The translations under genes were made by a program, and so were the position numbers. Below the pieces are notes generated by a model. That model saw only the letters and a program-made list of their open reading frames with translations, made no database searches and was not told the origin of the DNA. A stretch of 64,000 bases of DNA from an uncultured Bacilli bacterium. GTDB taxonomy: Bacteria; Bacillota_I; Bacilli_A; RF39; UBA660. Positions 3,644 to 31,844 of this stretch are shown here, piece by piece. The DNA lies in contig CANRFQ010000001.1 in NCBI GenBank assembly GCA_947629935.1, forward strand, positions 22,444-86,443, given 5' to 3'. How positions within the stretch are numbered: the first letter of the stretch is position 1; every line of letters begins with the position of its first letter.

Positions 3644-3671
3644 TTATATTATTTTTTTTCATTTTTTGCAA
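3644..3671 (-). promoter_or_regulatory. Sigma-A-type promoter for the MATE gene (-35 TTGCAA, 17 bp spacer, -10 TATAAT), followed by a ~100-nt leader
   Basis: The reverse complement reads TTGCAA-N17-TATAAT about 100 nt upstream of the start codon. Confidence 0.4.
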
Positions 3672-4902: not shown

Positions 4903-4980
4903 ATGACAAAAAGAGAACTTCCTCTATTTATTATAATTCTGCTATTATTCTTTGTAGTAATCACCTTACTATTTAGATAA
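4903..4980 (+). CDS. 25-aa hydrophobic peptide (MTKRELPLFIIILLLFFVVITLLFR), candidate type I toxin-like small membrane peptide
   Basis: RBS AAGGTGGTG lies 8 nt upstream of the ATG. The peptide has a single predicted TM helix. It sits about 75 nt downstream of the strong promoter and is immediately followed by a bidirectional terminator hairpin. Confidence 0.4.
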   Translation: MTKRELPLFIIILLLFFVVITLLFR

Positions 4981-4981
4981 T

Positions 4982-5018
4982 AAAAACATCTGATTTCAAC
5001 AATCGTTGATTTCAGATG
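4982..5018 (-). terminator. Intrinsic terminator hairpin (7+5 bp stem, loop AATC) with a U-run on the minus strand; structurally bidirectional
   Basis: catctgatttcaac/gttgatttcagatg arms are followed on the minus strand by UUUUUAUUAU. Leader segment 4843-4855 (GAAATATCAGATG) can alternatively pair with the 5' arm. Confidence 0.55.
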
Positions 5019-5755: not shown

Positions 5756-6805
5756 AAACAATTTTAAGATATCTTGCAAGGTTATATATATCATTAAAAG
5801 GAGTAACAATATGAACCCTACTGTATGGAATGCATTTTCTACTTTAGAATTAACAGGACTACCTTTTATTTTTTCAATTATTAGAAATAATATTCTACCT
5901 CCATCAAATGCCGGGAAAGGTAATATATTAATAAATCCTAAATTAATACTCAAAAACGCAATTAAATATATTACTTGTTGAATACCTACCGTTAAACTTT
6001 CACCGACTACTCCATAAATACCAACTGGTCCTGATAAAGAGCTAAGGCCTAATCCTCCTGTGAATAAATTAACTATTACGATAGCCATTGAATCAATAAC
6101 AGCCCCAAATTTCAAAACGGCATATTTTAAAGCTTGCACAAAACCATATTTCTTAGTAGTATCAATTTGGACTCCGAACACTTTTCGAGTATTACCTTTT
6201 TCATCTTTTTCCGTAACTGGTTTTATTTTATAATCTTTAATATCACCATTAGTTTTTTCAATTTTGAAAGTATAATAATCGTTTTTACTTTTAATATTTA
6301 ATAAAATTTGAGCTTTATCCCAAGTATTAACTTTTTTATCATTAACAGCAATTATGCGGTCGCCTTTTTCAATTCCAGCTTTTTCTATTGGATAACCTTC
6401 AGTTACTTTACCTACAACTGGTTCTAAAGAAGAACTACCCCAAATTAGAGCCGATAAAAATAATAAAACAAAGGCTAAAACAAAATTAAAAGTTACCCCC
6501 GCAACTAAAATTAAAAAACGTTGAAAACCAGTTTTATTACACATAAATTTTTCTTTAGGTATATTTTTATCATCTTCGGAAACTTCCCCTGCCATTTGGA
6601 CATATCCCCCAATAGGTAGAGCTCTTACCGAATACTGAATTCCATCTTTTTTACTAATTTTTTTAAATAAGATAGGTCCCATACCAATTGAAAACTCATA
6701 AATGTGAACCCCACATTTTTTAGCAAAAATAAAGTGACCAAATTCATGAATCATTACTAAAAGGCCTAAAATAAAAATTAAAACAATTAAAGTAACAAAC
6801 CACAT
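5753..6805 (-). CDS. rseP: Regulated intramembrane site-2 zinc metalloprotease RseP/RasP (M50 family, PDZ domain)
   Basis: HEFGHF zinc motif, a central PDZ domain and a C-terminal LDGG motif. Strong RBS AAGGAGGA. Lies downstream of cdsA as in Firmicutes. Confidence 0.9.
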   Translation of the reverse strand: MWFVTLIVLIFILGLLVMIHEFGHFIFAKKCGVHIYEFSIGMGPILFKKISKKDGIQYSVRALPIGGYVQMAGEVSEDDKNIPKEKFMCNKTGFQRFLILVAGVTFNFVLAFVLLFLSALIWGSSSLEPVVGKVTEGYPIEKAGIEKGDRIIAVNDKKVNTWDKAQILLNIKSKNDYYTFKIEKTNGDIKDYKIKPVTEKDEKGNTRKVFGVQIDTTKKYGFVQALKYAVLKFGAVIDSMAIVIVNLFTGGLGLSSLSGPVGIYGVVGESLTVGIQQVIYLIAFLSINLGFINILPFPAFDGGRILFLIIEKIKGSPVNSKVENAFHTVGFILLLLLMIYITLQDILKLF

Positions 6806-6817
6806 AATAAATCCTCC

Positions 6818-7618
6818 TTATAATATTGTAAACATTATTAAAAATGCTATAACTACAAATATTAAACTATCTAATCTATCTAATACTCCTCCATGACCAG
6901 GAATTAATTTAGAAAAATCTTTAATCTTAGATTCTCTTTTAATTTTACTAAAAACTAAATCCCCTATTTGCCCTATGATAGATAATATTACCACAAATAT
7001 ACATATCTTTATAACATTAACATTAGAGCTAATTAAATTTAGATAGAACATAACGGCAACAAATGTTCCTAAAACAATACCACAAAGGCTTCCTTCCCAT
7101 GTTTTACCAGGGGAAACACTAACTATCAATTTATGTTTACCAATTAATTTACCAAATATTAAAGCAAAAGTATCATTTAATACTGTAATTAATACTAAAA
7201 ATACTAATAATAAAACATTATAATCAACTAAAACAATTAATATATTAAAGAAAACTCCTAATAGTAAAATCCAACCAATTAAATAAAATGCATCTTTCGT
7301 CGTATATTTATCATTAGCGCCATAAAAAATGGTAGGACCTAAAAGCAAAATTAATAAATAGCCAATAGTTCGAAACGAAAGACCTAAGTTTAACAAATAA
7401 TCATTTTTTGAAGTAAAAATTAATATAAGCAAACTTATCATTCCTAATACTTTAATAATACTAGGTAAATTTTTTTCTTTCTTTTTTAAATCTATAACTT
7501 CCTTAAATGCTAAAATACTTACAATACCTACCCCTATTTTAAAAGGTAATCCTCCTATAATTATAAGAGGAACAAAAATTGCAATTAAGATAGCTGCGCT
7601 TAAAATTCTTTTTTTCAT
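6818..7618 (-). CDS. cdsA: Phosphatidate cytidylyltransferase CdsA (ATG start; the ORF track begins at an upstream TTG)
   Basis: Polytopic protein with the CdsA C-terminal signature (SxxKRxxxxKDxxxxxPGHGGxxDRxDS). Synteny with rseP. Confidence 0.85.
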   Translation of the reverse strand: MKKRILSAAILIAIFVPLIIIGGLPFKIGVGIVSILAFKEVIDLKKKEKNLPSIIKVLGMISLLILIFTSKNDYLLNLGLSFRTIGYLLILLLGPTIFYGANDKYTTKDAFYLIGWILLLGVFFNILIVLVDYNVLLLVFLVLITVLNDTFALIFGKLIGKHKLIVSVSPGKTWEGSLCGIVLGTFVAVMFYLNLISSNVNVIKICIFVVILSIIGQIGDLVFSKIKRESKIKDFSKLIPGHGGVLDRLDSLIFVVIAFLIMFTIL

Positions 7619-14585: not shown

Positions 14586-14882
14586 TTAATTTTCATCATC
14601 ATCTTCAAAGCTAATATTTCCCGCTTCAATATCTAAAGCCATATCTAGTAAGTCTGTTGTAAAGACCGTATGCAGAAATTCTTTAATTTCTTCATCCATA
14701 ACAATTTCCATGTAAGTATCTTCACCTTCAACAGTTTCTTCAAAGTATTCGTACTCACTTGTTGTTTTTTCATCAGGAGTTAATTTATTAGCATAAAAGA
14801 ATTTATGTCCTTCTTGCATAGTATCCATTAATAATAAGTATTTCTCATTATCCTCTAGCGTTATTATTTGCCCCTTTTTCAT
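14586..14882 (-). CDS. Small acidic protein, DUF1292(YrzB)-like
   Basis: 98 aa, very acidic C-terminus. The start overlaps the upstream stop (ATGA coupling). It resembles the second DUF1292-like ORF at 40334..40597. Confidence 0.5.
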   Translation of the reverse strand: MKKGQIITLEDNEKYLLLMDTMQEGHKFFYANKLTPDEKTTSEYEYFEETVEGEDTYMEIVMDEEIKEFLHTVFTTDLLDMALDIEAGNISFEDDDEN

Positions 14883-16429
14883 CTAGTTCTTCCTCCAAAC
14901 TTAAGCTCATAAATATAGCTTATCTCATCATATAATTGTTTAGCTTCATCGACATTATTAATCATAAAATATTCACCATTAATATCTATTTCTTGCGGTT
15001 CAGTTTTATCTGTCCATTTTTTGATTAATTTATTTAATTTACGAATAGCTTTTTTACAAGATCTTTTATTTAATGATTCAAAATTATCTTTATCATTAAT
15101 AGGATTATTTAAATTTTGACGATATTCTTGTTCTCCCGCCGCTATATTAAATAATTCTTCAATTTGTTCTAATGATAAATCTTTATATTCTGAAGGTATT
15201 TCTCCACTATCTAAAATTGCTTCTAATTCGGATATTTTATTTTCTAATTCTTCGTCTGTTAAAGTTTCAAAATTATATGCTGGTGGTAAAGATTCAGGTT
15301 CTTCTTTTTTATGATCTTTTACACGTTTTTTAGCCCATTTAATTAAACGTTTACCGCCTTTAAATAATCCATAGCCAGCACCTGCTAAAACAGCAGCTCC
15401 TGCCATATTTCCTAAAACAACTTCTAACATATTCATATTATTAACTGCCTTAGAGCCAATAGTCCAAAGACCACTCGCCAAATCAAAATTGCCAGCTCCT
15501 AACTTACCAATCAAGAAATCATTAATAGAATGAAGAGCTCCACCTAAACCAATATTATGTAAAGGTCCCCACATAGAACTAACAATACGCGCAGGAATTG
15601 CTAGAGGTGTGCCATAAACTACACAAGACCCAACTATACCTGCTAAAGCAACTGCTGCTATAATAGCTTCTTTTTTATGATTTTTAATATAAGGAACAGC
15701 TTTATCTTTGACAAATTCAACCGTAAAGTCTTTAACTGCTACAACTTTTTTCTTTACTTTTTTAAAACCATTTTTTAATTTACTTAAAATTGATTGATTT
15801 TTCTTTTCATCTCCAGCTTTTTGTTTAGCTTCCAAAGCTTCTAATCGAGCATTTATACTATCATTCTGCAATTTCAATTCTTCATTTTCATCTAAAAGGT
15901 TCTTATAAGCTATTAATAATTCTTCGTGAGTCATTTTTTCAGGACTTGGTTTTTTATTGAACTCATGCCCAATTTGCGAACATAAAGTCTCTATTTCGAC
16001 TAACTTCACTGTAGCTTGATCTTTTTTATCAGGTTGTTCGGCAATTGTAGAATTAATATATTCCTTACTTTTTTCCATATTGCCTTTATATTTTGTTAAA
16101 CCTTCCATAGCCAAATCTAAAGATGCTTGAACATGTGATATTTTTCCATCAATAGTCTGATCTTCAGGATTCTCTTCTTTCTTCTTTGCTAAATCTTTTA
16201 TTTCACGTGTTAATTTAAAATGCTCTAAGGCAATTACACAATATTTAGCATAATTATTGACATAAGTAATAATAGGATTTTCTATAACTCCTGTATAACC
16301 AGCCGAATAAATAAGATCATTTAGTTCATTCGCCTTAGTCACTAGTAAATCTAGCTTATCTGTTGCTTCGTACTTTTCTAAAGTTTTTCTTAATTCCTCA
16401 ATTTCAAATGTTAACATTATAACCACCAT
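14879..16429 (-). CDS. Hypothetical protein with an N-terminal coiled coil, a central Gly/Ala-rich hydrophobic (glycine-zipper-like) region and an acidic C-terminal domain (likely start at the second ATG, ~16417)
   Basis: A coiled-coil heptad region (residues ~150-230), then AIIAAVALAGIVGSCVVYG...GNMAGAAVLAGAGYGLF, then a C-terminal EEL-rich segment. RBS GGTGGT precedes the second ATG. Confidence 0.6.
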   Translation of the reverse strand: MVVIMLTFEIEELRKTLEKYEATDKLDLLVTKANELNDLIYSAGYTGVIENPIITYVNNYAKYCVIALEHFKLTREIKDLAKKKEENPEDQTIDGKISHVQASLDLAMEGLTKYKGNMEKSKEYINSTIAEQPDKKDQATVKLVEIETLCSQIGHEFNKKPSPEKMTHEELLIAYKNLLDENEELKLQNDSINARLEALEAKQKAGDEKKNQSILSKLKNGFKKVKKKVVAVKDFTVEFVKDKAVPYIKNHKKEAIIAAVALAGIVGSCVVYGTPLAIPARIVSSMWGPLHNIGLGGALHSINDFLIGKLGAGNFDLASGLWTIGSKAVNNMNMLEVVLGNMAGAAVLAGAGYGLFKGGKRLIKWAKKRVKDHKKEEPESLPPAYNFETLTDEELENKISELEAILDSGEIPSEYKDLSLEQIEELFNIAAGEQEYRQNLNNPINDKDNFESLNKRSCKKAIRKLNKLIKKWTDKTEPQEIDINGEYFMINNVDEAKQLYDEISYIYELKFGGRTR

Positions 16430-19619: not shown

Positions 19620-19949
19620 CTAAGAAAATAATTTACCAATAACTTTTAAAAATTTTGATAATCCAGTTGTCATAAAACTTTCTACTTTTTTCGAAAAACT
19701 AAGGCCTATTTTCGAAGCTTTATTACTGTAATCTTTTGTTTCTTTTGTTAAATAATCATCAATTGTGACATCTTTTCCTTGGGCAACATCTTTTTCAAAT
19801 TTTTGAATAGCTTCATTCGTAAGCTTTACTCGATCATTTAACTTGCTTTCATAATAACCTGAAGAATTAGCTATATAAAGTCCCATATAAACAACAAATA
19901 AACTAATTAAAATGAACCAGAAAAATTTATTAGATTTCTTCTTTTTCAT
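19620..19949 (-). CDS. Small N-terminally anchored membrane protein, translationally coupled to spoIIP (YqxA-like position)
   Basis: ATGA overlap with the spoIIP stop. Single TM. No motif. Confidence 0.5.
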   Translation of the reverse strand: MKKKKSNKFFWFILISLFVVYMGLYIANSSGYYESKLNDRVKLTNEAIQKFEKDVAQGKDVTIDDYLTKETKDYSNKASKIGLSFSKKVESFMTTGLSKFLKVIGKLFS

Positions 19950-20920
19950 TGCTGACTATTCACCAAATCATATAAAGAATTAGCTATTACGGTTAAAGTA
20001 TTTGTTACTTCATCAATAGTATTTTCTGGTCCACCTACTTCGATTAACAAAGCGTTACTACTCAAATCCTGATTATATATACCGTTATTGCCTTTTCCCC
20101 CTTTTTTTAAAATCCCTTTCGACAAAGAGTCACATTTAGAATTAACTATATCACTTAATTTTTGGGCTATAGCTATATTTTGTTCATAATTTTCATGTTC
20201 AATACCAACAACAAATAAAATTTTAGCATATGACTTATTATTTAGGGTTAAAGTAGTTGTATTTTTCGGAACAGAATCTCTATGAATATCAATAATATAT
20301 TTTAAAGAATCATTTTTGGCAAGGGCATCCTCAACCAACATACGACTAGCTTTATAAGAATAACTATATTTCCAATTATTTATATTTAATAATTCGGTTA
20401 TATCTGTCTCTTCCACAATAGTCGGAATATTTAAATCATTTAATTTTTCTTTTAAAATATAGCTCGCCATTAAAACATTAGGAGAAGCGTCATACATATT
20501 AACATTGCTATTACTATAATCTTCTAATTGGTGGGAATTATATAAATAAATTAAAGGTTTTTTAACATTGTACTTATTAGGATCTTCAAAATACTTAGTA
20601 ACTATTGATTCTTCATCATAACTATCTTCAAATACTACAGCACTATCATCAATTAAATGATTCATGCTAGTTTTTAATAATAACGAAGAAGAATTAAAAT
20701 TAATATTAAATAAATCATTATTTTTATTAGTTTCAATTAAATTATTAGCACTTGTTTTTAAAAGATAATTAATTATTACTTTGTTAGAAACTTTATCTTT
20801 AATTTTTTTATTATATAAAAATTTAAAGCTATAAGAAAAAGATATATATACTAATCCAATTATAAATAATATTTTAATTAAATAATATTTTCTTTTCTTT
20901 TTCGCTTTAAATCTTTTCAT
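19946..20920 (-). CDS. spoIIP: Stage II sporulation protein P (SpoIIP; MurNAc-LAA amidase-like)
   Basis: N-terminal TM, LIYLYNSHQLEDY, IDIHRDS and LIEVGGPENT segments resemble SpoIIP motifs. Synteny with the gpr-family gene upstream, as in Bacillus (gpr-spoIIP). Confidence 0.6.
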   Translation of the reverse strand: MKRFKAKKKRKYYLIKILFIIGLVYISFSYSFKFLYNKKIKDKVSNKVIINYLLKTSANNLIETNKNNDLFNINFNSSSLLLKTSMNHLIDDSAVVFEDSYDEESIVTKYFEDPNKYNVKKPLIYLYNSHQLEDYSNSNVNMYDASPNVLMASYILKEKLNDLNIPTIVEETDITELLNINNWKYSYSYKASRMLVEDALAKNDSLKYIIDIHRDSVPKNTTTLTLNNKSYAKILFVVGIEHENYEQNIAIAQKLSDIVNSKCDSLSKGILKKGGKGNNGIYNQDLSSNALLIEVGGPENTIDEVTNTLTVIANSLYDLVNSQQ

Positions 20921-21240
20921 ATTTATCCCATCCTAAAATCATTGTACTGAATTTCTTTTAAAAAAATTGTTGATTTTAGGATAATTTAAACAGTTATTTA
21001 ACAACATAAGGATCTTGCTCAGTTCCACACTTTTATACCAGCACCTGCAAACTAGTATCAGCCTATATAAATTTTCATGTAGCCGAAAAATTCGTCAGAA
21101 TTTGACGAACGATTTTAATTTAGCTTTATTGTTTAGCTTTTTATAATATTTACTCGAGTGCTATCTGGGGCATCTACCATTTTACATCTTGATAAAACAT
21201 AATCCTATGGGGTTTTGGTTTATAAGGAAGTGGATGTGTT

Positions 21241-21312
21241 ATGAGAAAACTTTTAGATATACCAAAAATGATTATCATTATAAAAATTTTAAATATCCTA
21301 AAAGATATTTAA
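21241..21312 (+). CDS. Conserved 23-codon ORF inside the repeat (MRKLLDIPKMIIIIKILNILKDI); coding status uncertain
   Basis: RBS AAGGAAGTGGA lies 6-9 nt upstream. The reading frame is intact in both copies (copy 2: MKKLLVYLKVIIIIKILNILEDI), but 7 nonsynonymous versus 2 synonymous differences. Confidence 0.25.
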   Translation: MRKLLDIPKMIIIIKILNILKDI

Positions 21313-21397
21313 AATAAAATGACGCCCGTTAGAAAGAGTAATCTTTTTAACATGGCGTCTGCAACAAAAGTGTAGATGCTATTCATTTAGCACTTAC
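21310..21397 (-). ncRNA. Candidate ~85-nt small RNA: consensus promoter (-35 TTGTAA 21427-21432, 17 bp, -10 TATAAT 21404-21409) to intrinsic terminator (GACGCC/GGCGUC outer stem, 10-bp inner stem with GUAA-type loop, U-run)
   Basis: Promoter and first 28 transcribed nt are 100% identical in both copies. The terminator's outer stem is conserved while its inner stem and loop differ by compensatory changes (copy 1 gttagaaaga/tctttttaac; copy 2 acttaa/ttaagt). Confidence 0.35.
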
Positions 21398-21909
21398 ATT
21401 TTTATTATATACTTTCTTTTTTTATTTTACAATTATTTTTTACATTTACTTTTTGTTTCTTCTGTTTAAAATCAAAGTTCTATGCATATTATCATCATTA
21501 ATATTATCTAAATTTTGATTTTTGATAGTTGTAGGTGTTTTAAGGAGATTGCTTAAATGTTCTGATACTACAAATCTAAAAGGATCCCATTCATCAAAAG
21601 TATTAGCATAATCAGTTAAACACTCATGACAGTTTTTAAATGTATGACATCTCCAAGCTGCACTTCCAATCATATCGCCCGGAGCACATACTCCCAATTT
21701 TTTCCATTTGATTATTTTTTCTTCCGGTGTTATTTTTCCTCTTCTATGAATTGCATCTATTTCTTCTTGACTTCAGGGTTTAAATTTTACTGTTGTTACT
21801 TCTTTTATTATTGCCTTCTTTCTATAAAAATATTATATACTATGTATATGATAAAGAAAATATTTTTACATTTTCCTACCAAACATATTTAAAAATTTTG
21901 CATAAAATC

Positions 21910-22683
21910 TCATTTCAAAAATAACTCATTTAAAGAACTGGCTATAATATCACTCAATTTATTTATTTCTTCTTCAATATTTAAAGAACTATACATTCTT
22001 TTATTAATATCGATTACTACAGGTACCCCTATAGATATTAATGGAATATTAAAAGTTTTAAAACTAATTTTTCTATTTGTTTTAATGGCACTGCCAGGAA
22101 TAATTCCTGTATCCGAAATTTCAATACATCTATTTAAGTTCTTGGGATTATTAGTAGCCAAAGAATCAATAACTATAATAGAGCTTGGTTTTAAAGAATT
22201 TACTAACATTTTAATTAGAGCAAAAGAACTTATTCCCGTTTTCCCAATAACTTCCGGAACAAATAAAGCTACTTTGGGAATAGTTAAAAAATCTACATAT
22301 TGATTAGTCGCTATTACTTTATTAGTCGTCTTTGGTCCTAATGAATCACATAAAATACTGGAGTTACCGAGTCCAATAATTAACGTAGTACCATAGTTAG
22401 GAATCGCCTTTTTAAAATGTCTTAAAACTTTTATTATTTCTTTTTTTATTGTTTTAGGATAGTTGTTTAAAACATTATCTTTAAAACAAATAGTAAAATA
22501 TTGCCCAACATCTCTTTTTAAATATTTTTTCTTTTCCTCATCGACTGCAAAGAAGGATGTTTTAATATCATTTTTAATGCTTTCTTCTAATTTATAACCG
22601 TTATTTTTAAATGTCGATTCTGCTAAATCTAAAAAAAGTTTATTTTTCATAATCTCACCAATATTATTTTGGCCGGAAAGCAC
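21910..22683 (-). CDS. gpr: GPR/YyaC-family spore germination protease (peptidase A25); probable start at internal ATG 22650
   Basis: LIIGLGN...LGP and ISDTGIIPGS motifs correspond to the conserved GPR segments (VGLGNWNVTPDALGP, ISDTGIHPGS). It is shorter than Bacillus GPR (C-terminal ~100 aa absent). Confidence 0.6.
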   Translation of the reverse strand: MLSGQNNIGEIMKNKLFLDLAESTFKNNGYKLEESIKNDIKTSFFAVDEEKKKYLKRDVGQYFTICFKDNVLNNYPKTIKKEIIKVLRHFKKAIPNYGTTLIIGLGNSSILCDSLGPKTTNKVIATNQYVDFLTIPKVALFVPEVIGKTGISSFALIKMLVNSLKPSSIIVIDSLATNNPKNLNRCIEISDTGIIPGSAIKTNRKISFKTFNIPLISIGVPVVIDINKRMYSSLNIEEEINKLSDIIASSLNELFLK

Positions 22684-23066: not shown

Positions 23067-23978
23067 ATGAAAAGAGTTATCGTACCTATCATTTTGTGTG
23101 TTATTCTTTTATTAGTAGCAATATATATTGAACCAATAACCAATACTATAGCTAATGTTTTAGAAAATGAGCCAAAAATTGTAATCGAGCCCACAAATGA
23201 ATACTATCGCAATTATGATTTTGAATTTGTCCAACAAACGGAAGATTTTGTTCCTTATAGTTATCAAGGATTATTAAATATAATTTATACCATGTTAAAT
23301 AACGGCTGGCAAAAGTTTACTTTCTATTGTCCTGATGAATATGCAGAATGTCTAAATGATGTGGAAAGAATTTCGAAAGATAATGTACTATTAACTAATA
23401 TCAACAATTATGTTCATCCTTTTAATAATTTTGATAATATTGTGACAAGTTACTATAAATCTGGTGAAGTAACAATTGAAATAACTAAATTATATTCCGA
23501 AGATGATATAAATAGAATTAATGCTGAAGTTGATAGATTAATAGCCACATTAATTACCAATGATATGGATGATGTTACGAAAATAAAAACCATTCATGAT
23601 TATATAATTAACAATACTAAATATGATACTATTCGCAATGACACAAATCAAAGTCCTTACCATTCTAATACAGCACTCGGGCCTTTATTTGAAGGATATG
23701 CCATTTGTAGTGGATATGCTGATGCAATGGAATTATTTTTAGAAAAGTTTGATCTTAAAAGTTTTAAAGTAGCAAGTTCCTTACATATTTGGAATTCTGT
23801 TTATATAAATGGTGTTTGGAAACAACTAGATTTAACATGGGATGATCCAATTACAACTACTAATGAAGATTATTTATATTATAAATATTTTTTAGTAAAT
23901 GCTAGTGATTTAGCATCCTTAGATACTGAAACTAATCAACATGAATTTGATAGGACAGTCTACTTAGAATTAAAATAA
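23067..23978 (+). CDS. Transglutaminase-like cysteine-protease-fold protein with an N-terminal signal anchor
   Basis: Cys-His-Asp core: YAICSGYADAM ... HIWNSVYINGVWKQLDLTWDD. N-terminal TM. Confidence 0.7.
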   Translation: MKRVIVPIILCVILLLVAIYIEPITNTIANVLENEPKIVIEPTNEYYRNYDFEFVQQTEDFVPYSYQGLLNIIYTMLNNGWQKFTFYCPDEYAECLNDVERISKDNVLLTNINNYVHPFNNFDNIVTSYYKSGEVTIEITKLYSEDDINRINAEVDRLIATLITNDMDDVTKIKTIHDYIINNTKYDTIRNDTNQSPYHSNTALGPLFEGYAICSGYADAMELFLEKFDLKSFKVASSLHIWNSVYINGVWKQLDLTWDDPITTTNEDYLYYKYFLVNASDLASLDTETNQHEFDRTVYLELK

Positions 23979-23983
23979 CATAC

Positions 23984-24721
23984 TCATTTTAAAGAGTATG
24001 TTTTTATATCTTGGAACGTCTGAATTTTATCTTCTTTATTTTCTAAAATACAATATAAGAAATCCGAAAACTGGGTATTAAGAAAGTCATTTAAAAGATT
24101 TCTCACCTTATAATTAGTAATATAATTCGCTACATTATTTCTTACGAAAGCTCGAAAAAACATAACATTAAAATTTTTAAGATTTTTTTGGCAAATATTA
24201 TTTTTATTCTCTTTTGGTAAAAGCAGATATAAATCGGTATCTAATATCCATAAATTTTTATTTTCTTGTTCTAGAATCATATTGGCAAATTTAATATCCT
24301 TAATAGCCAAGTGATATTCTAGACTTAATCTTATTATTTCTTCTTGAATTTTCTTTATCTCATTATATAATGTTTCTAAATTTAAGTTTAAAAAATCCTC
24401 ATCAGTAAAATCATTTCCAATTACTTTCTTGGCTATATAACCATAAAACTGATCCAAATAAAATACTAAATGCATAGGGAATATAAAAGCATCACTTTCT
24501 ATTCCCTTATTTACAAGAGCACTAATTTGATAATAAAAATCCGTAAAATCAAAAGGAATATTCGATATTAATATAGTCCCATTTATAATTTGAGGATGCC
24601 ATAATTTAATTATGTTTTTTTCATCTAATTCATAAACTTTGCCACATTGACCCTCACCTAAACATTGATGAGATGTTATTTCGGCATATTCGTCTTTAGA
24701 TAGTTCTACAAATCTATCCAT
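23984..24721 (-). CDS. Atypical protein-kinase-like fold protein, paralog B
   Basis: Gly-rich loop GEGQCGKVY, a KLW lysine segment, the catalytic-loop-like DIKFANMIL and the DFG-like ILDTD. It is homologous to 25597..26367 (e.g. GEGQCGKVYELDEKNIIKLWHPQ versus GHGNDGKVVFYNKKNVMKLWYDQ). Confidence 0.55.
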   Translation of the reverse strand: MDRFVELSKDEYAEITSHQCLGEGQCGKVYELDEKNIIKLWHPQIINGTILISNIPFDFTDFYYQISALVNKGIESDAFIFPMHLVFYLDQFYGYIAKKVIGNDFTDEDFLNLNLETLYNEIKKIQEEIIRLSLEYHLAIKDIKFANMILEQENKNLWILDTDLYLLLPKENKNNICQKNLKNFNVMFFRAFVRNNVANYITNYKVRNLLNDFLNTQFSDFLYCILENKEDKIQTFQDIKTYSLK

Positions 24722-24729
24722 AAATCTCC

Positions 24730-25581
24730 CTACTTCTCTAAATAATCTATAACTTCCTTAATTGTATTTTGGAAATTAGCGTAATCAACATTAAACCATT
24801 TAACGTCCATTTGATGAGCATACCAAGTATATTGTCTTTTAGCATACTTACGAGATTTTTGTTTAATCATCTCTTTAGCCTCTTCTAAAGATATTTTCTT
24901 ATCAAAATAAGCATACAACTCTTTATAGCCAATCGCTGTCATAATCGCTTTACTATGAATACCTTTGTCATATAAAGTTTTTACTTCTTCTAATAATCCC
25001 TCAGCAAACATTTCATCTACGCGCTTATTAATCAAATTATATAAGTTTTCTCTAGGTGTTGTAAGACCAATAAAATGCACATTATCATATAATAACTGAT
25101 CTTTATTATAAGCATCTGTTTCTCTATTTAAAAAACGAATTAATCTTTGGCGATTGTGAGGATGAATATCCATATTTTTATCTTTTTTTAAAGCCCTAAT
25201 ATAAAGTTCTTCATTTGTTAAATTATCATAACTATTGAAATTTGTTTCTTCTTGAAACTCATAGTTATATAACAAGGCTTTCATGTATAAGCCCGAACCA
25301 CCAACTATAATGATATTTTGATCTTTATGTTCTTCTATAACTTTACGACCATCTTTTTGATAATCATATACTGTATAATTTTCAGCAACATCGACATAAT
25401 CCAATAAATAATGAGGAATATTTTCTTTTTCTTCTTCTTTAATTTTAGCAGTACCAATATCTAAATCTTTATAGACTTGCATGGCATCACAATTAATAAT
25501 AATTCCCTTATATTTTTGGGCAAGAGCAATTGACATTTTTGTTTTCCCTACGCCAGTTGGTCCGCAAACACATATAATCAT
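24730..25581 (-). CDS. miaA: tRNA dimethylallyltransferase MiaA
   Basis: P-loop CGPTGVGKT at the N-terminus and a length of 283 aa. RBS AGGGCGGTG. Confidence 0.9.
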   Translation of the reverse strand: MIICVCGPTGVGKTKMSIALAQKYKGIIINCDAMQVYKDLDIGTAKIKEEEKENIPHYLLDYVDVAENYTVYDYQKDGRKVIEEHKDQNIIIVGGSGLYMKALLYNYEFQEETNFNSYDNLTNEELYIRALKKDKNMDIHPHNRQRLIRFLNRETDAYNKDQLLYDNVHFIGLTTPRENLYNLINKRVDEMFAEGLLEEVKTLYDKGIHSKAIMTAIGYKELYAYFDKKISLEEAKEMIKQKSRKYAKRQYTWYAHQMDVKWFNVDYANFQNTIKEVIDYLEK

Positions 25582-25596
25582 TTTTTCACCGCCCTT

Positions 25597-26367
25597 TTAA
25601 ATATTTCGAAAGTCCCCCATTGTTTTAATTTTCACAATTTTTTCTTTTTCTAATTCATGGTGCAATTTTCTTAAAAAATCTGTTAATATTGTACTTTGAT
25701 TATTTTTTATTAAAGCAAAGTTACCTCTCAAATTTTGATTAGATTCAATAAATTCTTTAAGTGGTTCTGTTATTATTTGGGCAAAGATAATATTTCTTAT
25801 TTCATTAATGTTATGTTCATATAATTTTTGGAAGTCTTTTGAAGTTTTTTGCCAAGAATCAGGATCCATAAGACCAAAAGAAACAATTTTATGTTTTTGT
25901 AACACCATTAAGTTTTTAGCATGAATATCATTTAACATAAAACCCTCTTGAGAAAAAATCAATAATTCTTTTTCTAATCTTTTTAACCCGTTCAAAAAAG
26001 CACGAAATAATATTAAATCACTTAAAATATCTAAGTTACGGCCCGGAAAATAAGCAAGTAAATAACCGACAACTTCTCCTAAATATTCCACTGGTACTTT
26101 AGGTATATAAATATAATGATAGTGATATGTTGCGGTGTTTAAATCGCGAATATTGTGAATATAATTTTCTTTAACTTCTGGTAATAATTCATAAGGAGAA
26201 TCTTGATCATACCAAAGTTTCATAACATTTTTCTTATTATAAAAAACTACTTTCCCATCATTACCGTGTCCAGTTGGCATACCATTAATAATGCGTCCAA
26301 CTTCGGGAGCATTTTTATAATAAGTATATTCACCGGAAGTTAAAACTAAATTATTTTTCATTCCCAT
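25597..26367 (-). CDS. Atypical protein-kinase-like fold protein, paralog A
   Basis: GHGNDGKVVF, KLWYDQ, LNDIHAKNLMV and LMDPD motifs. Paralog of 23984..24721. Confidence 0.55.
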   Translation of the reverse strand: MGMKNNLVLTSGEYTYYKNAPEVGRIINGMPTGHGNDGKVVFYNKKNVMKLWYDQDSPYELLPEVKENYIHNIRDLNTATYHYHYIYIPKVPVEYLGEVVGYLLAYFPGRNLDILSDLILFRAFLNGLKRLEKELLIFSQEGFMLNDIHAKNLMVLQKHKIVSFGLMDPDSWQKTSKDFQKLYEHNINEIRNIIFAQIITEPLKEFIESNQNLRGNFALIKNNQSTILTDFLRKLHHELEKEKIVKIKTMGDFRNI

Positions 26368-26416
26368 TACCCCTTTAGCGCTTAGTATAATACTATTTTG
26401 TTATGAATTTGTCAAA

Positions 26417-28156
26417 TTAGTTCATAACTCTTTTAAACATTCTTTCTAATTCATAAATACTAAATTTAATAATAGTAGGTCGTCCATGCGGACAATTATA
26501 GGGATTATCAGTTTGGACTAAACTATCAAGTATTTCTTCAATTGATTCCATACTAATATTAGTATTTCCTTTAATACTTGTTTTACAAGCTAATGTAATC
26601 GCAATATGTTCATTAAATTTTACCCGATCAAAATTATTTTTATTAACAATAACTAAATCTATTATTTTTCTGATTTGTTCTTCTTCATATCCTTTTTTAA
26701 GCCAAGTTGGATGCTCTTTAATAATAATCGTATTTACACCAAAATCTTCAATGTTAAAGCCGAGATTAGTTAAAACTTCCCTATTTTCTTTAATTGTTAA
26801 ATAATCACTAGCGGAAAGTTCAATACTAATGGGAAATAATAAAGCAGTTGTTGATACTTTTTCATTTTGTAAAGCTTTTAAATATTTTTCATAATTTACG
26901 CGTTCTTGAGCGGCATGTTGATCAATTAAATAAACGCCTTCATCATTTTGAGCAATAATATATGTGCCCAAAGCTAAACCAACAGGGTATAGTTTTAAAG
27001 ATTTTAATTCTTTATTTATTACTACTGGTTGTGTTACATTTTCTTGGACACCTAAATCAAAAACGACCTGTTCTTCTTTAACTACAGAGGGTTCATCTTT
27101 TTTAACAATCTGTTCTATGTAAGTATCTTTAACATCATTTTCTAAAGGAGTAATTTCAATTTTAGGAATTAATAAATTTTGATATAAAGCATTTTTTATA
27201 GTGTCATATAAAAGTGTTGTTAATTCATTCATTTTACTAATTTTAATATCTTGTTTAGTGGGATGAATATTAACATCTATTAAGGTGGGATCTGTATTAA
27301 TTAAAATCACTACAATGGGATATTTTATGTCAGGTTTATAAGTATAATAGGCCTCATTAATTATTTTATTTAAATCATTATTACGGACAACTCGCCCATT
27401 AACAATAGTTATCATATGATTACGATTGGATTTTAATATCTGTGGTTTACAAATATACCCATAAATATCAAAATCATCATTACTATTTTTTATTTCAATC
27501 ATATTCGAAGAAACATTAAGACCATATAATTCGTGAATTGTTTTATGTAAATTTCCACTGCCACTAGTTTTAAGAATAACTTTTTCGTTATTAGTAAGAG
27601 TAAAACGAATTTGAGGATGTGACAAAGCTATTTTCTCAATAAAACTTGTAGTATTAGCAAGTTCCGTTGTTTCACTCTTTAAATATTTTAAACGTGCTGG
27701 AGTATTATAAAATAAACTCTTTATCTCAATTATAGTCCCTTGATTTAAAGCACAACTACTTTCGGAAATCAACTTTCCACCTTCAATAATAATTTGTGTC
27801 CCTTTTTCCCCTTGGGCTGTTTGTAAGCAAACTTTAGAGACACTGGCTATTGAAGGTAAAGCTTCGCCTCGAAAACCTAAAGTACCTATAAAAAATAAGT
27901 CATCCTCTTTTAACAATTTAGATGTAGCATGACGGGAAAAAGCAAGCTTAGCGTCTTGACTATCCATACCGATGCCATTATCAGTTACTTTTATACTTTT
28001 TATCCCCGCATCAATTAAATTTATTTTTATATCTGTAGCTAAGGCATCAATACTATTTTCCACTAGTTCTTTTACTACTGAAGCACATTTTTCCACTACT
28101 TCTCCAGCCGAAATTTTATTGGCCAAGATTTCACTCATTACTTTTATTTTACTCAT
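26417..28156 (-). CDS. mutL: DNA mismatch repair protein MutL
   Basis: N-terminal GHKL ATPase motifs (ISAGEVVEK...VKELVENSIDA, the DNGIGM segment). 579 aa. Confidence 0.9.
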   Translation of the reverse strand: MSKIKVMSEILANKISAGEVVEKCASVVKELVENSIDALATDIKINLIDAGIKSIKVTDNGIGMDSQDAKLAFSRHATSKLLKEDDLFFIGTLGFRGEALPSIASVSKVCLQTAQGEKGTQIIIEGGKLISESSCALNQGTIIEIKSLFYNTPARLKYLKSETTELANTTSFIEKIALSHPQIRFTLTNNEKVILKTSGSGNLHKTIHELYGLNVSSNMIEIKNSNDDFDIYGYICKPQILKSNRNHMITIVNGRVVRNNDLNKIINEAYYTYKPDIKYPIVVILINTDPTLIDVNIHPTKQDIKISKMNELTTLLYDTIKNALYQNLLIPKIEITPLENDVKDTYIEQIVKKDEPSVVKEEQVVFDLGVQENVTQPVVINKELKSLKLYPVGLALGTYIIAQNDEGVYLIDQHAAQERVNYEKYLKALQNEKVSTTALLFPISIELSASDYLTIKENREVLTNLGFNIEDFGVNTIIIKEHPTWLKKGYEEEQIRKIIDLVIVNKNNFDRVKFNEHIAITLACKTSIKGNTNISMESIEEILDSLVQTDNPYNCPHGRPTIIKFSIYELERMFKRVMN

Positions 28157-28267
28157 ACTTACTTCTCTTTTCTTATATTAAAAATATTACCATATTTTCA
28201 AGCTTTTTACCAATTAAAAAAGTAACGATCTTTATTCATTACTTTCTGAAAGAATGTTTTTAAATTT

Positions 28268-29263
28268 TTAAAAAAATGACTTTCTCACTTCTATTAAATC
28301 TAAATCATTTATATATATCTTTACTTTACAAGCATTTTTGCAATTAATAAAACCTAAACCTAAAATAACAATATCATTATTTGAAGGTATATCAAACTCT
28401 TGTGCCTTTAAATTTTCTAATTTCTTCGATCCAAAAACTCTTGTTAAAGGTATCTGATTACTAAGATAAAAAGTAAAGTTATTCTTTTTTTCTAAGTTTT
28501 CGATGCGAATTTTATCATCAATTAAGATAGAAGCGCCTTCTTTTAATTGATAAGTGATTGGTTTTAAAAACTTTTTCGGATTTACTTTTTTAATAAAATT
28601 TAAATCATTATTATCATATATGTTATTTTTTAAAGCAAATCCAGGAGAATCAACAATAGTTAAATGTTCATTTATTTTAATGTTCATAAAATCCAAAGTA
28701 GTATTTGGTACTAAACTAGTTGTAATCGCATGATGATTTAGTTCTTTAAACTGAACAATACTATTTACTAAACTACTTTTTCCTACATTTGTAAAACCTA
28801 AAAGATAAGCTTTAGAAATTTTTTTGGCTTCTAAATAATTCAATAAAGTATTTATATTTCGATTTTTTAAAGCACTTATGAAAATGATTTCATCATCAAT
28901 TTTATAATAATCATTAAGCCAAGCTATTATCTTATTACGATTAAAAGAATAAGGAATAATATCACTTTTACTAATTAGCAAAGTTTTAGGCCTTTTTATT
29001 TTTTGATATAACTTTATCGTTTTAAGATTAATATTTAAAAAATCAATTAAAAATAAGACATGACTTTTACTTTGATTAACAATATCTATAATATTTTTTT
29101 CATCTGTTGGTAAAGTCACTACTTTAGCGTCATTATAATGAATTATTTTAAAACATCTTTCACATAAATCGGCTTTTTTATTAGCTGTTTTAGGTACGTA
29201 CCCTAATTTACTTGCATCCGTAGTTTGTAATTCATACCCACAGCCTATACATTTTTTAGTCAT
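28268..29263 (-). CDS. yqeH: Ribosome biogenesis GTPase YqeH (circularly permuted GTPase with an N-terminal zinc ribbon)
   Basis: CIGCG...CERCF zinc ribbon and a GFTNVGKSSLVNS G1 motif in a permuted arrangement. It follows yqeG as in B. subtilis. Confidence 0.85.
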   Translation of the reverse strand: MTKKCIGCGYELQTTDASKLGYVPKTANKKADLCERCFKIIHYNDAKVVTLPTDEKNIIDIVNQSKSHVLFLIDFLNINLKTIKLYQKIKRPKTLLISKSDIIPYSFNRNKIIAWLNDYYKIDDEIIFISALKNRNINTLLNYLEAKKISKAYLLGFTNVGKSSLVNSIVQFKELNHHAITTSLVPNTTLDFMNIKINEHLTIVDSPGFALKNNIYDNNDLNFIKKVNPKKFLKPITYQLKEGASILIDDKIRIENLEKKNNFTFYLSNQIPLTRVFGSKKLENLKAQEFDIPSNNDIVILGLGFINCKNACKVKIYINDLDLIEVRKSFF

Positions 29264-29777
29264 GATATTCTCCTTTAGTAAATAAGCCTTTCTTAGCTAG
29301 TTTTTTCATTATCATTCTTTCTATCATACGATTAAATTTGGTCCAAATGAAATCTTCTCTACTAATAGGATTAACTAAGATACTTGTAAACCCCATTCTA
29401 TTAGCTCCAAAAACATCAGTCAATATTTGATCACCGATTGCAGCTATTTCAATATCTTTAAAATTGTATACATTCATGATTTTTTGATATTTTTTCTTCA
29501 AAGGCTTGCGAGATAAGAACGCCGTGTCAACATTAAACCCCTCTTTAAAAGGTTCCAAACGCGTTTTGCCACTATTTGACATAATGATTACTTTAAATCC
29601 CATTTCTTTTAAACCTTCCAATAGTTCTTTTTCTTTTATCCCTGGAACACTAGCATTAATTGGTGCTAAAGTATTATCTAAATCAAATAAAAGACATTTT
29701 ATCCCCGATTTTTTCAAAGCTCTGTAATTAATTGTAAAAATACTCTGTTGATATATATCCGGAGCAAATATATCCAT
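29256..29777 (-). CDS. yqeG: YqeG-family HAD-IIIA phosphatase
   Basis: LLFDLDNTL motif I and an IGDQILTDV motif IV. Synteny with yqeH. Confidence 0.8.
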   Translation of the reverse strand: MDIFAPDIYQQSIFTINYRALKKSGIKCLLFDLDNTLAPINASVPGIKEKELLEGLKEMGFKVIIMSNSGKTRLEPFKEGFNVDTAFLSRKPLKKKYQKIMNVYNFKDIEIAAIGDQILTDVFGANRMGFTSILVNPISREDFIWTKFNRMIERMIMKKLAKKGLFTKGEYHD

Positions 29778-29792
29778 AATTAATCATCCTAA

Positions 29793-30932
29793 CTAATCAT
29801 TTTGATTTAAAGAATTTAACTCTTCATATTTTTGTTCAAAAATACTAATAAATTTATTGATTTCGTCCAAAGTAGTTAAATAAGAAATACTTATACGAAT
29901 CGTTGTCTGAGCTCTTTTTTTGTCATTATATAAAGCCATAACGGTATTACTTAACTCGCCTTTTGAACACGCTGTTTTCGTACCAATATATATTTCTTCT
30001 TGAGCCATGGCATGCACAAAGGTTTCGCTTTTAATATCCATTAAGCTTATATTTAATATATGCGGAATAGAATAACTTGTTTTATTTATTTTAATTTTTT
30101 CGTACTTTTCAAGTTTGCGAATGATTTTCTCATTTAGTTTAGTTACAAAGCTTTCTTTTTGATCTAAATCTGTTAAAGCTAAACGTAAAGCTTTAGAAAA
30201 AGCAACTATTAATGGTAAAGGTGGTGTTCCGGGATTGAGTTTATTAAAATTTTTACTACTACCATGAATAAGCGGCTCCAATCTTATTTTTTTAGATTTA
30301 TATAAAAAGCCAATGCCTTTGGGACCGTATATTTTATGAGCGGAAGCGGAAGCTAAATCAACATCGTGTAAATTTACATTCACTTTACCTAAAGCCTGCG
30401 TTATATCCGAATGGAACAAAATATTAGGATCTTCTTTTTTGATGATTTGCCGAATTGTTTTTAAAGGTTGTCTAATCCCTACTTCACTATTAACGGCACA
30501 TACACTAACTAAAAAAGTTTCGGCAGTTATTTTCTTTTTTAAATCTTCAAAATCAATAATCCCATTTTGATCATTCTCAACATAGGAAATAGTATAACCT
30601 AAAGTTTCTAAATATTCACAGATTTTATAAATAGAAGGATGTTCTAATTTAGAAACAACAATGTTCTTTTTATTTTCTGGTAGAAATTTTAACAACCCCT
30701 TAAAAGCCATATTATTTGCTTCTGTAGCTCCACTAGTTATAGTAAGCTCATCATCAGAAACATTTAATAAATTAGCCATTTGTTCTAAAGCATTTTCTAA
30801 TAATTTTTTAGATTTTAGGCCTAACTCATGAATGGAATTAGGATTACCTATATAATCTTTACTAGCCTTATTATAAGAATCAATAACATCATTTATTACT
30901 GGTGTTGTGGCACTATAATCTAAATAAATCAT
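29793..30932 (-). CDS. Cysteine desulfurase (class V aminotransferase, NifS/IscS-like); ATG start with an AGGTGA RBS (the ORF track begins at an upstream GTG)
   Basis: PLP-lysine segment SAHKIYGPKGIGFLY and an N-terminal LDYSATTP. Confidence 0.85.
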   Translation of the reverse strand: MIYLDYSATTPVINDVIDSYNKASKDYIGNPNSIHELGLKSKKLLENALEQMANLLNVSDDELTITSGATEANNMAFKGLLKFLPENKKNIVVSKLEHPSIYKICEYLETLGYTISYVENDQNGIIDFEDLKKKITAETFLVSVCAVNSEVGIRQPLKTIRQIIKKEDPNILFHSDITQALGKVNVNLHDVDLASASAHKIYGPKGIGFLYKSKKIRLEPLIHGSSKNFNKLNPGTPPLPLIVAFSKALRLALTDLDQKESFVTKLNEKIIRKLEKYEKIKINKTSYSIPHILNISLMDIKSETFVHAMAQEEIYIGTKTACSKGELSNTVMALYNDKKRAQTTIRISISYLTTLDEINKFISIFEQKYEELNSLNQND

Positions 30933-31010
30933 TACTATCACCTATTTAATTATAAACTAATTTAGAAAAAAGGTCTACTTATATAGAAAAAAAGCTTTCG
31001 GGAAAAAGCT

Positions 31011-31844
31011 TTACTTTAAATCTTTAATGGCGATAGGATCCATATCATCAAATTCTTTATTTTCGCCACACATAGCCCATATGAATTTATAACTACTAGT
31101 TCCACTACCCGCATGAATAGACCAACTAGGAGATATAACAGCTTGCTCATTTTTTACTACTATATGTCTTGTTTGAGAAGGCTCACCCATAAAATGGAAA
31201 ACAACATTTTCAGTGTCTATATCAAAGTAAAAATATACTTCCATTCTTCTTTCATGCGTATGAGGTGGCATCGTATTATAAACACTACCATCTAAAAGTT
31301 CGGTACAGCCCATTAATAATTGACAAGTATCAACTAAACTAGGATGAATTAGTTGATTTATAACTCTTTTATTACTGGTTAAATTATCCCCACAAGGCAC
31401 TTTACGAGCTTTGGCATTATCAATAAAAACATTGGGTTTTTCTTGATGAGCAGCACAAGAAGCTAAGAAAAATTTGGGATTATCAAGGTTTATAAATTCC
31501 ACTTTTTGATGGTCTTTACCAATATATAAAGCATTTAGATTATCTAAAATATATTCTTCTTCATCAACGATAATTTTTCCTTGACCACCGATATTAATAA
31601 TACCTAACTCTCTATTTTCTAAAAAGTAATTACTGCCTAAGTCTTTAGACGAATTTACGGCTGTTTCTAAATTCAATTTATTTTTAACGGGCATGGCCCC
31701 ACCAAAAATAATTCGATCAATATGCGAATAGGTTAAATTTATCTCATCACTAGCAAATATTTTTTCTACCAAAAATTCTTCCCTAATTTCTGTAGTATCA
31801 TATTTTTTAAAATCTTTCGGATTGGTTCCATAACGTGTCTGCAT
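31011..31844 (-). CDS. kduI: 5-dehydro-4-deoxy-D-glucuronate isomerase KduI
   Basis: Near-colinear match to KduI motifs: EFLVEKIF, YSHIDRIIFGG, NTMPPHTHERRMEVYFYF, NEQAVISPSWSIH, FDDMD. 277 aa. Confidence 0.85.
   Translation of the reverse strand: MQTRYGTNPKDFKKYDTTEIREEFLVEKIFASDEINLTYSHIDRIIFGGAMPVKNKLNLETAVNSSKDLGSNYFLENRELGIINIGGQGKIIVDEEEYILDNLNALYIGKDHQKVEFINLDNPKFFLASCAAHQEKPNVFIDNAKARKVPCGDNLTSNKRVINQLIHPSLVDTCQLLMGCTELLDGSVYNTMPPHTHERRMEVYFYFDIDTENVVFHFMGEPSQTRHIVVKNEQAVISPSWSIHAGSGTSSYKFIWAMCGENKEFDDMDPIAIKDLK

Follow-up and report, generated by a model that had tools for sequence, protein, structure and literature searches.

Organization of the locus

The 64,000-nucleotide stretch of DNA considered here (the window), which belongs to contig CANRFQ010000001.1 of an uncultured Bacilli bacterium of the gut with low GC content, carries on its minus strand two small protein-kinase-like (PKL) genes, named PKL-B and PKL-A, that bracket miaA, the gene for tRNA dimethylallyltransferase, directly downstream of mutL (Table 1). 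The minus-strand order is mutL, PKL-B, miaA and PKL-A, with 49, 15 and 8 nt between successive genes, and the cluster is closed by a convergent gene for a transglutaminase-like protein. An earlier note on this DNA had described the same arrangement, with gaps of 8–50 nt, and had called the two PKL open reading frames (ORFs) paralogous. Pfam matches to MutL_C and IPPT and the measured distances bear out the arrangement, the ORFs lie where the note had placed them, and all four of the peptides that it quoted are present.

Table 1. Features of the mutL–miaA cluster and catalytic motifs of the two PKL proteins, in window coordinates
Feature	Position	Strand	Remarks
mutL, upstream gene of the cluster	26417..28156	-	Pfam MutL_C 1.2e-38, DNA_mis_repair 7.3e-33, HATPase_c_3 1.3e-11
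Putative sigma-70/sigma-A-like promoter TTGACA-17-TATTAT in the mutL/PKL-B gap	26387..26415	-	11/12 match, the best in 23800..31100; consensus match only
PKL-B, minimal protein-kinase-like protein	25597..26367	-	256 aa as ORF; probable start at 26361
PKL-B Gly-rich loop, G33-H-G35-N-D-G38	26254..26271	-	Invariant in PKL-B orthologs
PKL-B Lys50, equivalent of the beta3 "VAIK" lysine	26218..26220	-	Counts in text
PKL-B catalytic loop, D147-I-H-A-K-N152	25912..25929	-	+2 residue is His; counts in text
PKL-B DFG-equivalent, D168-P-D170	25858..25866	-	D170 in 122/139; D168 in text
miaA (tRNA dimethylallyltransferase), between the two PKLs	24730..25581	-	Pfam IPPT 2e-62
PKL-A, minimal protein-kinase-like protein	23984..24721	-	245 aa
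PKL-A Gly-rich loop, G22-E-G24-Q-C-G27	24641..24658	-	From family alignment
PKL-A Lys39, equivalent of the beta3 lysine	24605..24607	-	From family alignment
PKL-A catalytic loop, D142-I-K-F-A-N147	24281..24298	-	Ser/Thr-kinase-like DxKxxN; from family alignment
PKL-A DFG-equivalent, D161-T-D163	24233..24241	-	Family form ID[TP]D[LF][YW] replaces DFG
Bidirectional terminator-like hairpin	23977..24002		9-bp stem, T-runs on both strands; spans the stops of PKL-A and the convergent gene
Convergent transglutaminase-like gene closing the cluster	23067..23978	+	Pfam Transglut_core 5e-6; position kept in relatives with and without PKLs

A Shine-Dalgarno sequence precedes every gene of the cluster, PKL-A and PKL-B included. 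Because PKL-B homologs begin at its third codon, and because the AAAGGGG ribosome-binding site is spaced better for the ATG at 26361, the real product is probably 254 aa long rather than 256. Each PKL protein has a mass of ~29–30 kDa, with a pI of 8.5 for PKL-B and 5.0 for PKL-A, and neither contains a hydrophobic stretch long enough to span a membrane.

That both genes are real and under purifying selection is seen from a comparison with the closest relative, the locus L007 of an "uncultured Bacilli bacterium" metagenome-assembled genome. The ratio of nonsynonymous to synonymous substitution rates (dN/dS) is 0.23 for PKL-B and 0.28 for PKL-A, against 0.04 for mutL and gpr, 0.07 for the transglutaminase-like gene and 0.15 for miaA, and the PKLs thus evolve several-fold faster than their neighbours. 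Protein identities to L007 are 97.6% for MutL, 96.5% for MiaA, 91.8% for PKL-B and 85.8% for PKL-A; to the more distant locus L001 they are 81.1%, 68.7%, 51.0% and 30.4%, respectively. Spurious ORFs and pseudogenes are ruled out by these dN/dS values together with the residue conservation described below.

Two distant paralogs from a large unnamed family

The paralogy of the two proteins is supported at several levels of sensitivity. In a direct BLASTP comparison the two are 24% identical over 157 aa (E 1e-6), and hhalign, applied to the respective ortholog alignments, gives a probability of 97.7% over 227 columns (E 1.7e-12). When the whole window is searched with a hidden Markov model (HMM) of the family, the two PKL ORFs are the only matches (E 2e-58 and 6e-53). 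As judged from their sequences, then, the two are true but distant paralogs whose similarity is beyond chance. A recent local duplication is ruled out by nearest-neighbour analysis, in which the two belong to different clades and are not each other's nearest relatives, unlike the copies of the tandem triplet in L022.

A word-indexed search recovers only 5–6 homologs per PKL. An exhaustive profile search returns 1,115 representative clusters (defined at 50% identity) at E ≤ 1e-3 and 330 at E ≤ 1e-10, nearly all of 220–250 aa. Where the sources name these homologs at all, the name is "hypothetical protein [Bacilli bacterium]", and the GC content of all family loci checked is 23–28%. Scans of PKL-A and PKL-B against Pfam and NCBIfam return no model at E ≤ 1, and a literature search turned up no paper on the family, the combination of mutL, miaA and kinase yielding nothing relevant. 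The two proteins are members of a large unnamed minimal-kinase family on low-GC contigs, whose named records come from uncultured Bacilli; the family is new within a well-known superfamily and is absent from the curated models searched (Pfam and NCBIfam). Homologs were also sought in viruses: tblastn finds no match to PKL-A or P0028 in 50,697 phage records, and none was found among IMG/VR viral contigs. A phage origin of the PKLs is ruled out on these grounds.

Conservation of the catalytic residues

The key residues of the protein-kinase-like superfamily are, in PKA numbering, G52, K72, E91, P104, H158, H164, D166, N171, D184 and D220 (Kannan 2007, PMC1821047). Conservation was scored here over 139 representatives of the family, no two of them from one 50%-identity cluster. 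Five of the six catalytic key residues are kept, as equivalents of G52 (G35 in PKL-B and G24 in PKL-A, present in 130/139), K72 (K50/K39, 137/139), D166 (D147/D142, 136/139), N171 (N152/N147, 135/139) and D184 (D168/D161, 139/139), which places the family within the superfamily. The earlier note had read a Gly-rich loop, a VAIK-type lysine, a catalytic-loop D/N pair and a DFG-like Asp into the two proteins, and had named loss of these residues across orthologs as a reason to abandon the assignment; what is seen instead is their retention in 93–100% of representatives. Two further positions are nearly as well kept. The Pro that precedes beta4 (P89 in PKL-B, P82 in PKL-A; 131/139) is, by its position, probably the equivalent of P104, and the Asn in the first helix after the DFG-equivalent (N186/N180; 129/139) may, again by position, stand in for D220.

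In the profile alignment the conserved lysine of the family falls on K159 of NleH1, the K of KVLKMF, and substitution of this residue (K159A) abolishes phosphorylation of MBP by NleH1 (PMC2791202). The catalytic loop of PKL-A also carries Lys in the second position after the Asp, and [LI]K following the catalytic Asp is a signature of Ser/Thr kinases (Kannan et al. 2007, PMC1821047).

Because in the models only ~12 residues separate the DFG-type Asp (D161 in PKL-A) from the next long helix, the activation loop and the APE motif are absent. Some 80 residues follow the DFG-equivalent in PKLs, as opposed to ~115 after the DFG in PKA, and these form four short helices, conserved in the family, that end in a conserved T-x-x-D-F motif. 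Neither PKL-A nor PKL-B has an N-terminal domain.

Predicted fold and closest known systems

AlphaFold2 models built on a 15-sequence alignment reach a pLDDT of 82.8 and a pTM of 0.82 for PKL-B, and 90.4 and 0.87 for PKL-A, and have the bilobal fold that characterizes the protein-kinase-like, or eukaryotic protein kinase (ePK)-like, superfamily. In structure searches ~190 residues align, and all 60 matches listed for each protein are protein kinases or pseudokinases. For PKL-A, Foldseek returns 1,491 PDB chains at E ≤ 1e-3, with Csk, ErbB4 and EGFR at E values from 1.8e-8 (Csk, the best) to 1e-6 and a TM-score of ~0.55. The minimal kinase-like fold proposed in the earlier note, for which it had suggested a Foldseek search as a check, is confirmed to this extent, with no non-kinase placement among the matches listed.

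Shallow ortholog profiles searched against PDB sequences give kinase matches below threshold, and the 138-sequence family profile is needed for significance. With this profile the top matches among solved structures are NleH1 (1.1e-11) and NleH2 (4.2e-10), and further matches include YabT (8.9e-7), 4eqm ("Protein kinase", 1.5e-6), SteC (3.7e-5), RIO2 (7e-4) and OspG (8e-4), with the motifs in register in the alignments. Scanned member by member (n = 138), the family yields weak matches, all below threshold and all to kinase families: in Pfam to Kinase-PolyVal (28 members), ABC1 (24), Pkinase (15), RIO1 (8), OspG_kinase (4) and APH (2); in NCBIfam to LanKC (19), Bud32 models (up to 15), NleH (14, best 4.3e-7) and Kdo kinase (6); and in PADLOC to PD-T4-6 (31, best 2e-7), MkoA (20) and mad6 (15).

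The closest known systems by these measures are the NleH/OspG effector kinases (PDB 4lrj, 4lrk and 4bvu; Pfam OspG_kinase, PF22303; NCBIfam NF041316), which, like the PKLs, possess a minimal kinase core that lacks an activation loop. NleH is without subdomains VIII–XI (PMC12756638). The Gly-loop, the catalytic Lys, the Asp...Asn loop and the Mg-binding Asp of NleH1 and the PKLs are in register, and the family profile is significant for NleH1, but the window PKLs themselves match neither the NleH nor the OspG model. Both NleH and OspG are effectors that Gram-negative pathogens secrete, and both have an N-terminal region for secretion and host binding, whereas the PKLs are standalone proteins of a housekeeping operon in a commensal member of the Bacilli, have the four further helices after the DFG-equivalent, and do not qualify as type III secretion system effectors.

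Hanks-type kinases (PknB, 1mru; YabT, 6g4j; 4eqm; Pfam Pkinase, PF00069) match the family profile at E ~1e-6, and PKL-A shares their Ser/Thr-type DIKxxN loop. The PKLs nonetheless lack the His/Arg of the HRD motif, the activation loop with its APE, the G-H-I subdomains and a conserved alphaC Glu, as well as any sensor or transmembrane domain. The best of the 15 weak matches to PF00069 is at 3.2e-6, and the gathering score is reached by 0/138 members, those matches shown individually lying beneath it, so that the PKLs are not Hanks-type kinases. Kinase-PolyVal (PF18762) and PD-T4-6, which are compact Ser/Thr/Tyr-kinase cores, are the commonest of the weak matches, yet all of those to Kinase-PolyVal (best 3.5e-6; 14–20.4 bits where shown individually) fall short of its 27-bit gathering score, and the PKLs are standalone chromosomal proteins rather than parts of the polyvalent proteins of phages and conjugative elements.

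Members of the Bud32/RIO group (KEOPS Bud32; RIO2, 6fdn) resemble the PKLs in their size of ~220–260 aa, in having no activation loop, and in the non-Lys +2 residue that most PKL family members show. The PKL genes share with Bud32 an association with a gene for A37 tRNA modification, but the linkage to miaA is lineage-specific and no Kae1/TsaD partner is found among the characterised neighbouring genes. Matches of Bud32, RIO1 and RIO2 to the family are weak and below curated thresholds, none of those to the RIO1 and Bud32 models coming from the window PKLs, and membership in this group is not indicated. CotS/YutH and the APH/choline-kinase (CAK) group, for their part, are like the PKLs kinase-like folds in spore-forming Bacillota, and the DxHxxN form of the PKL catalytic loop resembles the APH-type loop. 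PKL-A, with its 245 aa, is nevertheless much shorter than the 307-aa YutH of locus L013, the His of the HxD motif is missing in PKLs, and the Pfam families listed for the PKLs include neither CotS nor YutH, which argues against membership here as well. The "RIO/Kdo/CotS-like" label of the earlier note was accordingly right about the minimal kinase fold and imprecise in its particulars, RIO and Kdo kinase being among the weaker matches and CotS not being supported. A better label would be NleH/OspG-like, Hanks-like (YabT, PknB) and Bud32-like, with likeness also to the LanKC kinase domain and Kinase-PolyVal, and not CotS-like.

Synteny and history of the insertions

A second lineage (loci L001–L006, L023, L024 and L051), whose MutL is ~81% identical to that of the window, has the same order of mutL, PKL-B, miaA and PKL-A and, after these, the convergent transglutaminase-like gene, rpsT and gpr. 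Within L001 the called miaA and PKL-A coordinates share 1 nt. Other relatives depart from this pattern. In L008 (MutL 79.5% identical) mutL is followed by three tandem PKLs, and L017 has a full-length PKL, a 132-aa PKL fragment (1030..1428) and then miaA. The fragment looks like a decaying tandem copy. In L013, where MutL is only 53% identical, mutL is followed by a PKL that overlaps miaA by 4 nt and then by a Spore_coat_YutH gene.

The question of insertion was addressed with a MutL-centred sample of 43 metagenome loci. Loci with MutL 81–82% identical have the PKL-miaA-PKL arrangement, and in at least nine loci with MutL 51–67% identical mutL abuts miaA, the convergent transglutaminase-like gene comes next, and relaxing the thresholds reveals no PKL either. 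Because mutL and miaA stand together without a PKL at this range of MutL identity, the PKLs are not ancestral to the locus; they are lineage-specific insertions into an ancestral yqeH-mutL-miaA locus. A universal coupling of PKLs to mutL-miaA is ruled out by the same sample.

Nearest-neighbour analysis places the mutL-adjacent PKLs of the window (PKL-B), L001, L008 and L017 in a single clade; PKL-A is grouped with the PKL that lies downstream of miaA in L001. The PKL of L013 falls in another clade, and for this reason it may represent an independent insertion. Members of the family also occur in unrelated housekeeping loci: as tandem pairs in L011 and L018–L020, and singly between NUDIX and thyX genes in L021. 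Three tandem PKLs of 238, 229 and 240 aa (L022, 261..2414), 32–38% identical and each other's closest relatives, lie directly upstream of genes with a Ribonuclease_3 domain, for a SpoU methylase and for a sigma-70-family protein, which by position we take to be mrnC-rlmB-sigH, and of whiA. The triplet shows that the family has also expanded locally, by tandem copies, at a different housekeeping site.

The position after miaA invites a separate remark. In E. coli and clostridia it is usually hfq that follows miaA, and in the window this slot is occupied by PKL-A. In L013 the same slot is filled by the Spore_coat_YutH gene (6504..7427), which encodes a CotS-family kinase-like protein, and two unrelated kinase-fold families thus share the position.

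Transcription signals

The candidate promoter in the gap between mutL and PKL-B has counterparts elsewhere: the same TTGACA-17-TATTAT is present in L007 and L008, and TTGACA-17-TATAAT in L017. No such site is seen in L001, L023 or L013, where the gap between mutL and the PKL is only 10–26 nt. Promoter-like sites overall show no excess, with 42 found and 48.8 expected from shuffling. At the other end of the cluster, L001 has a hairpin of different sequence in the same place as the terminator-like hairpin of the window. Taken together, these signals make it likely that the transcription unit consists of promoter, PKL-B, miaA, PKL-A and terminator, with read-through from mutL possible. The earlier note had suggested one operon that includes mutL; the co-location stands, but a promoter in the mutL/PKL-B gap would let PKL-B, miaA and PKL-A be transcribed alone. 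Locus L008 shows, between its TTGACA-17-TATTAT and the start of the first PKL (4951..5000), a short GC hairpin with a T-run (ATCCCCTAAAAGAAGGGGATTTTTT) that looks like a terminator or attenuator; the window has none such.

Proposed function

We consider it reasonably probable that PKL-A and PKL-B are active, partner-dependent minimal Ser/Thr kinases that are co-transcribed with miaA. Two PKLs from different clades entered the ancestral yqeH-mutL-miaA locus of this lineage and would be transcribed together with miaA from the sigma-A-like promoter, possibly also by read-through from mutL, with transcripts ending at the one hairpin after PKL-A. Each product is a soluble, single-domain and probably cytoplasmic protein comprising a kinase N-lobe and catalytic core, "IDxD" in the place of DFG, and a four-helix bundle thereafter. 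The Gly-loop and the beta3 Lys (K50/K39) would hold ATP and N152/N147 together with D168/D161 would bind Mg, while the base in an ATP-dependent phosphotransfer to Ser or Thr of a protein or peptide would be D147/D142. A protein substrate is most likely, since protein or peptide Ser/Thr kinases come out closest in both the structure and the profile comparisons. With neither an activation loop nor a conserved alphaC Glu, activity and specificity probably rest on the terminal segments or on a partner, such that target recognition, and possibly activation, might proceed via the divergent C-terminal helices together with the N-terminal extension or a bound partner. The analogy is to OspG, for which one account describes an activity that depends on binding the host E2~ubiquitin conjugate (PMC11078946). 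There may, in addition, be a functional tie to MiaA or MutL.

Several observations weigh against this proposal. The data indicate no substrate for either protein, and the Gly-loop region of PKL-B is modelled poorly, with pLDDT < 50 at residues 25–35. No column of the poorly aligned alphaC region contains Glu or Asp in more than 45/139 representatives, so that the Lys-Glu salt bridge, a usual feature of active kinases, is not evident from sequence, though the alphaC Glu is lost in some active kinase families (Kannan 2007, PMC1821047). There is no His/Arg ahead of the catalytic Asp, the residue at position -2 being L, I or M, and the +2 residue of the catalytic loop varies among ~134 members (51 H, 34 N, 16 K and 12 S); for these two reasons a function as small-molecule kinase, ATPase or pseudokinase is conceivable, above all for PKL-B. 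Finally, since many members of the family lie in unrelated loci and close relatives have mutL-miaA without PKLs, proximity to miaA may carry no functional meaning.

It is rather unlikely, in our estimation, that the two proteins are small-molecule kinases of the APH, choline-kinase or Kdo-kinase type, acting on a metabolite, xenobiotic or antibiotic, with tandem copies covering different ligands. The catalytic loop speaks for such a role, as PKL-B and 51 of ~134 members have a DxHxxN that resembles the Pfam APH consensus loop "DlHpgN", with the Asn variant resembling the Kdo-kinase loop. The lack of an activation loop or any other substrate-binding element of ePKs, the weak matches to ABC1/UbiB (24 members), Kdo kinase (6), WaaY/RfaY (2) and APH (2), the fast divergence and the tandem arrays would all fit too. 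The best profile matches, however, are to protein and peptide kinases (NleH, YabT, PknB, LanKC, Bud32 and Kinase-PolyVal), the His of the HxD (Brenner) motif is missing, and the loop of PKL-A is of the Ser/Thr type, DIKxxN. A special case of the small-molecule explanation would have the PKLs phosphorylate prenol and then dimethylallyl phosphate (DMAP) in sequence, supplying dimethylallyl diphosphate (DMAPP) to MiaA. The tight coupling to miaA, which is seen in the 8-nt gap here and in the start/stop overlaps of L001 and L013, has been weighed also as a sign that the PKLs are accessory ATPases, regulators or pseudokinases of the adjacent enzymes, controlling MiaA (and thereby A37 modification) or MutL much as Bud32 acts with Kae1 in KEOPS, rather than signalling through phosphorylation. 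A PKL stands between mutL and miaA even at 53% MutL identity, NCBIfam Bud32 models are weakly matched by 15, 10, 9, 8 and 5 members (best E 1e-7), and the alphaC Glu is not conserved. We nonetheless hold an accessory role to be distinctly unlikely: relatives with MutL 51–67% identical keep mutL-miaA without a PKL, roughly half of the members sampled occur at unrelated loci, the PKL of L013 comes from a different clade, and PKL dN/dS values are 2–6 times those of MiaA or MutL, which would not be expected of an obligate partner. Less probable still is that the PKLs are dedicated partners, whether as a Bud32-Kae1-like gate on i6A37 formation by MiaA (or on MutL) or as a two-step salvage of prenol to DMAPP for MiaA. 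Were this true, a kinase-fold protein would be the regulator or substrate supplier of a tRNA prenyltransferase, and to our knowledge there is no such case.

Two further explanations concern defence and sporulation. Rapid evolution, duplication in tandem and a patchy distribution among close relatives, together with weak matches to PADLOC models (PD-T4-6 31, MkoA 20 and mad6 15) and to Kinase-PolyVal (28 members), would suit conflict or defence kinases such as PD-T4-6 or Stk2, silent until a phage or foreign protein activates them and then phosphorylating host targets. The PADLOC matches all reflect generic kinase-domain similarity, though, and both genes form part of a housekeeping operon, to which they are coupled translationally and which has a promoter-like site of the sigma-A type; the surrounding genes are housekeeping only, with no signature of a defence system. 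With no homologs in the phage genomes or viral contigs searched, a defence function appears very improbable. Least credible to us is a role in sporulation or germination of the CotS/YutH kind, a possibility raised by the CotS-like label of the earlier note. It is true that genes for SpoIIP (19946..20920) and Gpr (21910..22683) lie nearby, that L001 has spoIIGA-sigE, and that a Spore_coat_YutH protein occupies the slot after miaA in L013. The last of these, however, is not matched by the PKL family HMM at E 1e-3, the weak APH matches are confined to 2/138 members with CotS and YutH not among the Pfam families listed, and the promoter-like site is of the sigma-A type rather than of a sporulation-sigma type. 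The rpsT-gpr-spoIIP neighbourhood, an ordinary conserved gene order in Bacillota that is found also on the B. subtilis gene map, is moreover present in relatives without PKLs.

If the PKLs are indeed active Ser/Thr kinases, they represent a sizeable family of very small kinases, which comprises ~1,100 clusters (50% identity) and is covered by neither Pfam nor NCBIfam. All members sampled are on low-GC contigs, and the host organisms are uncultured. Retention of the phosphotransfer residues with loss of the alphaC Glu, HRD and activation loop would make the family a natural test of the minimal kinase fold and of activation by partners, and the repeated placement of members between mutL and miaA offers a concrete operon in which to hunt for substrates. 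The result is best regarded as a well-supported annotation of a new kinase family and not as a new biological principle, of moderate interest to specialists in kinases and the gut microbiome.

Other observations

Between sigE and mutL, L001 has two adjacent paralogs (1419..4162) of 430 and 479 aa, both with a hydrophobic segment at the N terminus and without a Pfam domain; in the window yqeH stands before mutL and the paralogs are missing from this position. Elsewhere in the window, a 516-aa ORF (14879..16429, minus strand) with no Pfam match at E ≤ 1e-5 is flanked by a UvrD-like helicase gene on one side and a ClpB/ClpC-like ATPase gene on the other. The ~1 kb between spoIIP and gpr (20921..21909) has no ORF longer than 88 aa, and an Rfam search of it returns no family at E ≤ 1 except a chance miRNA match; within it, on the minus strand, is an 83-aa Cys/His-rich ORF (21446..21697) that contains CAPGDMIGSAAWRCHTFKNCHECL. 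The neighbouring Gpr homolog, encoded on the minus strand, is short, with 257 aa that cover only positions 18–231 of the 353-position Peptidase_A25 model, and relatives have gpr versions of 234–246 aa.

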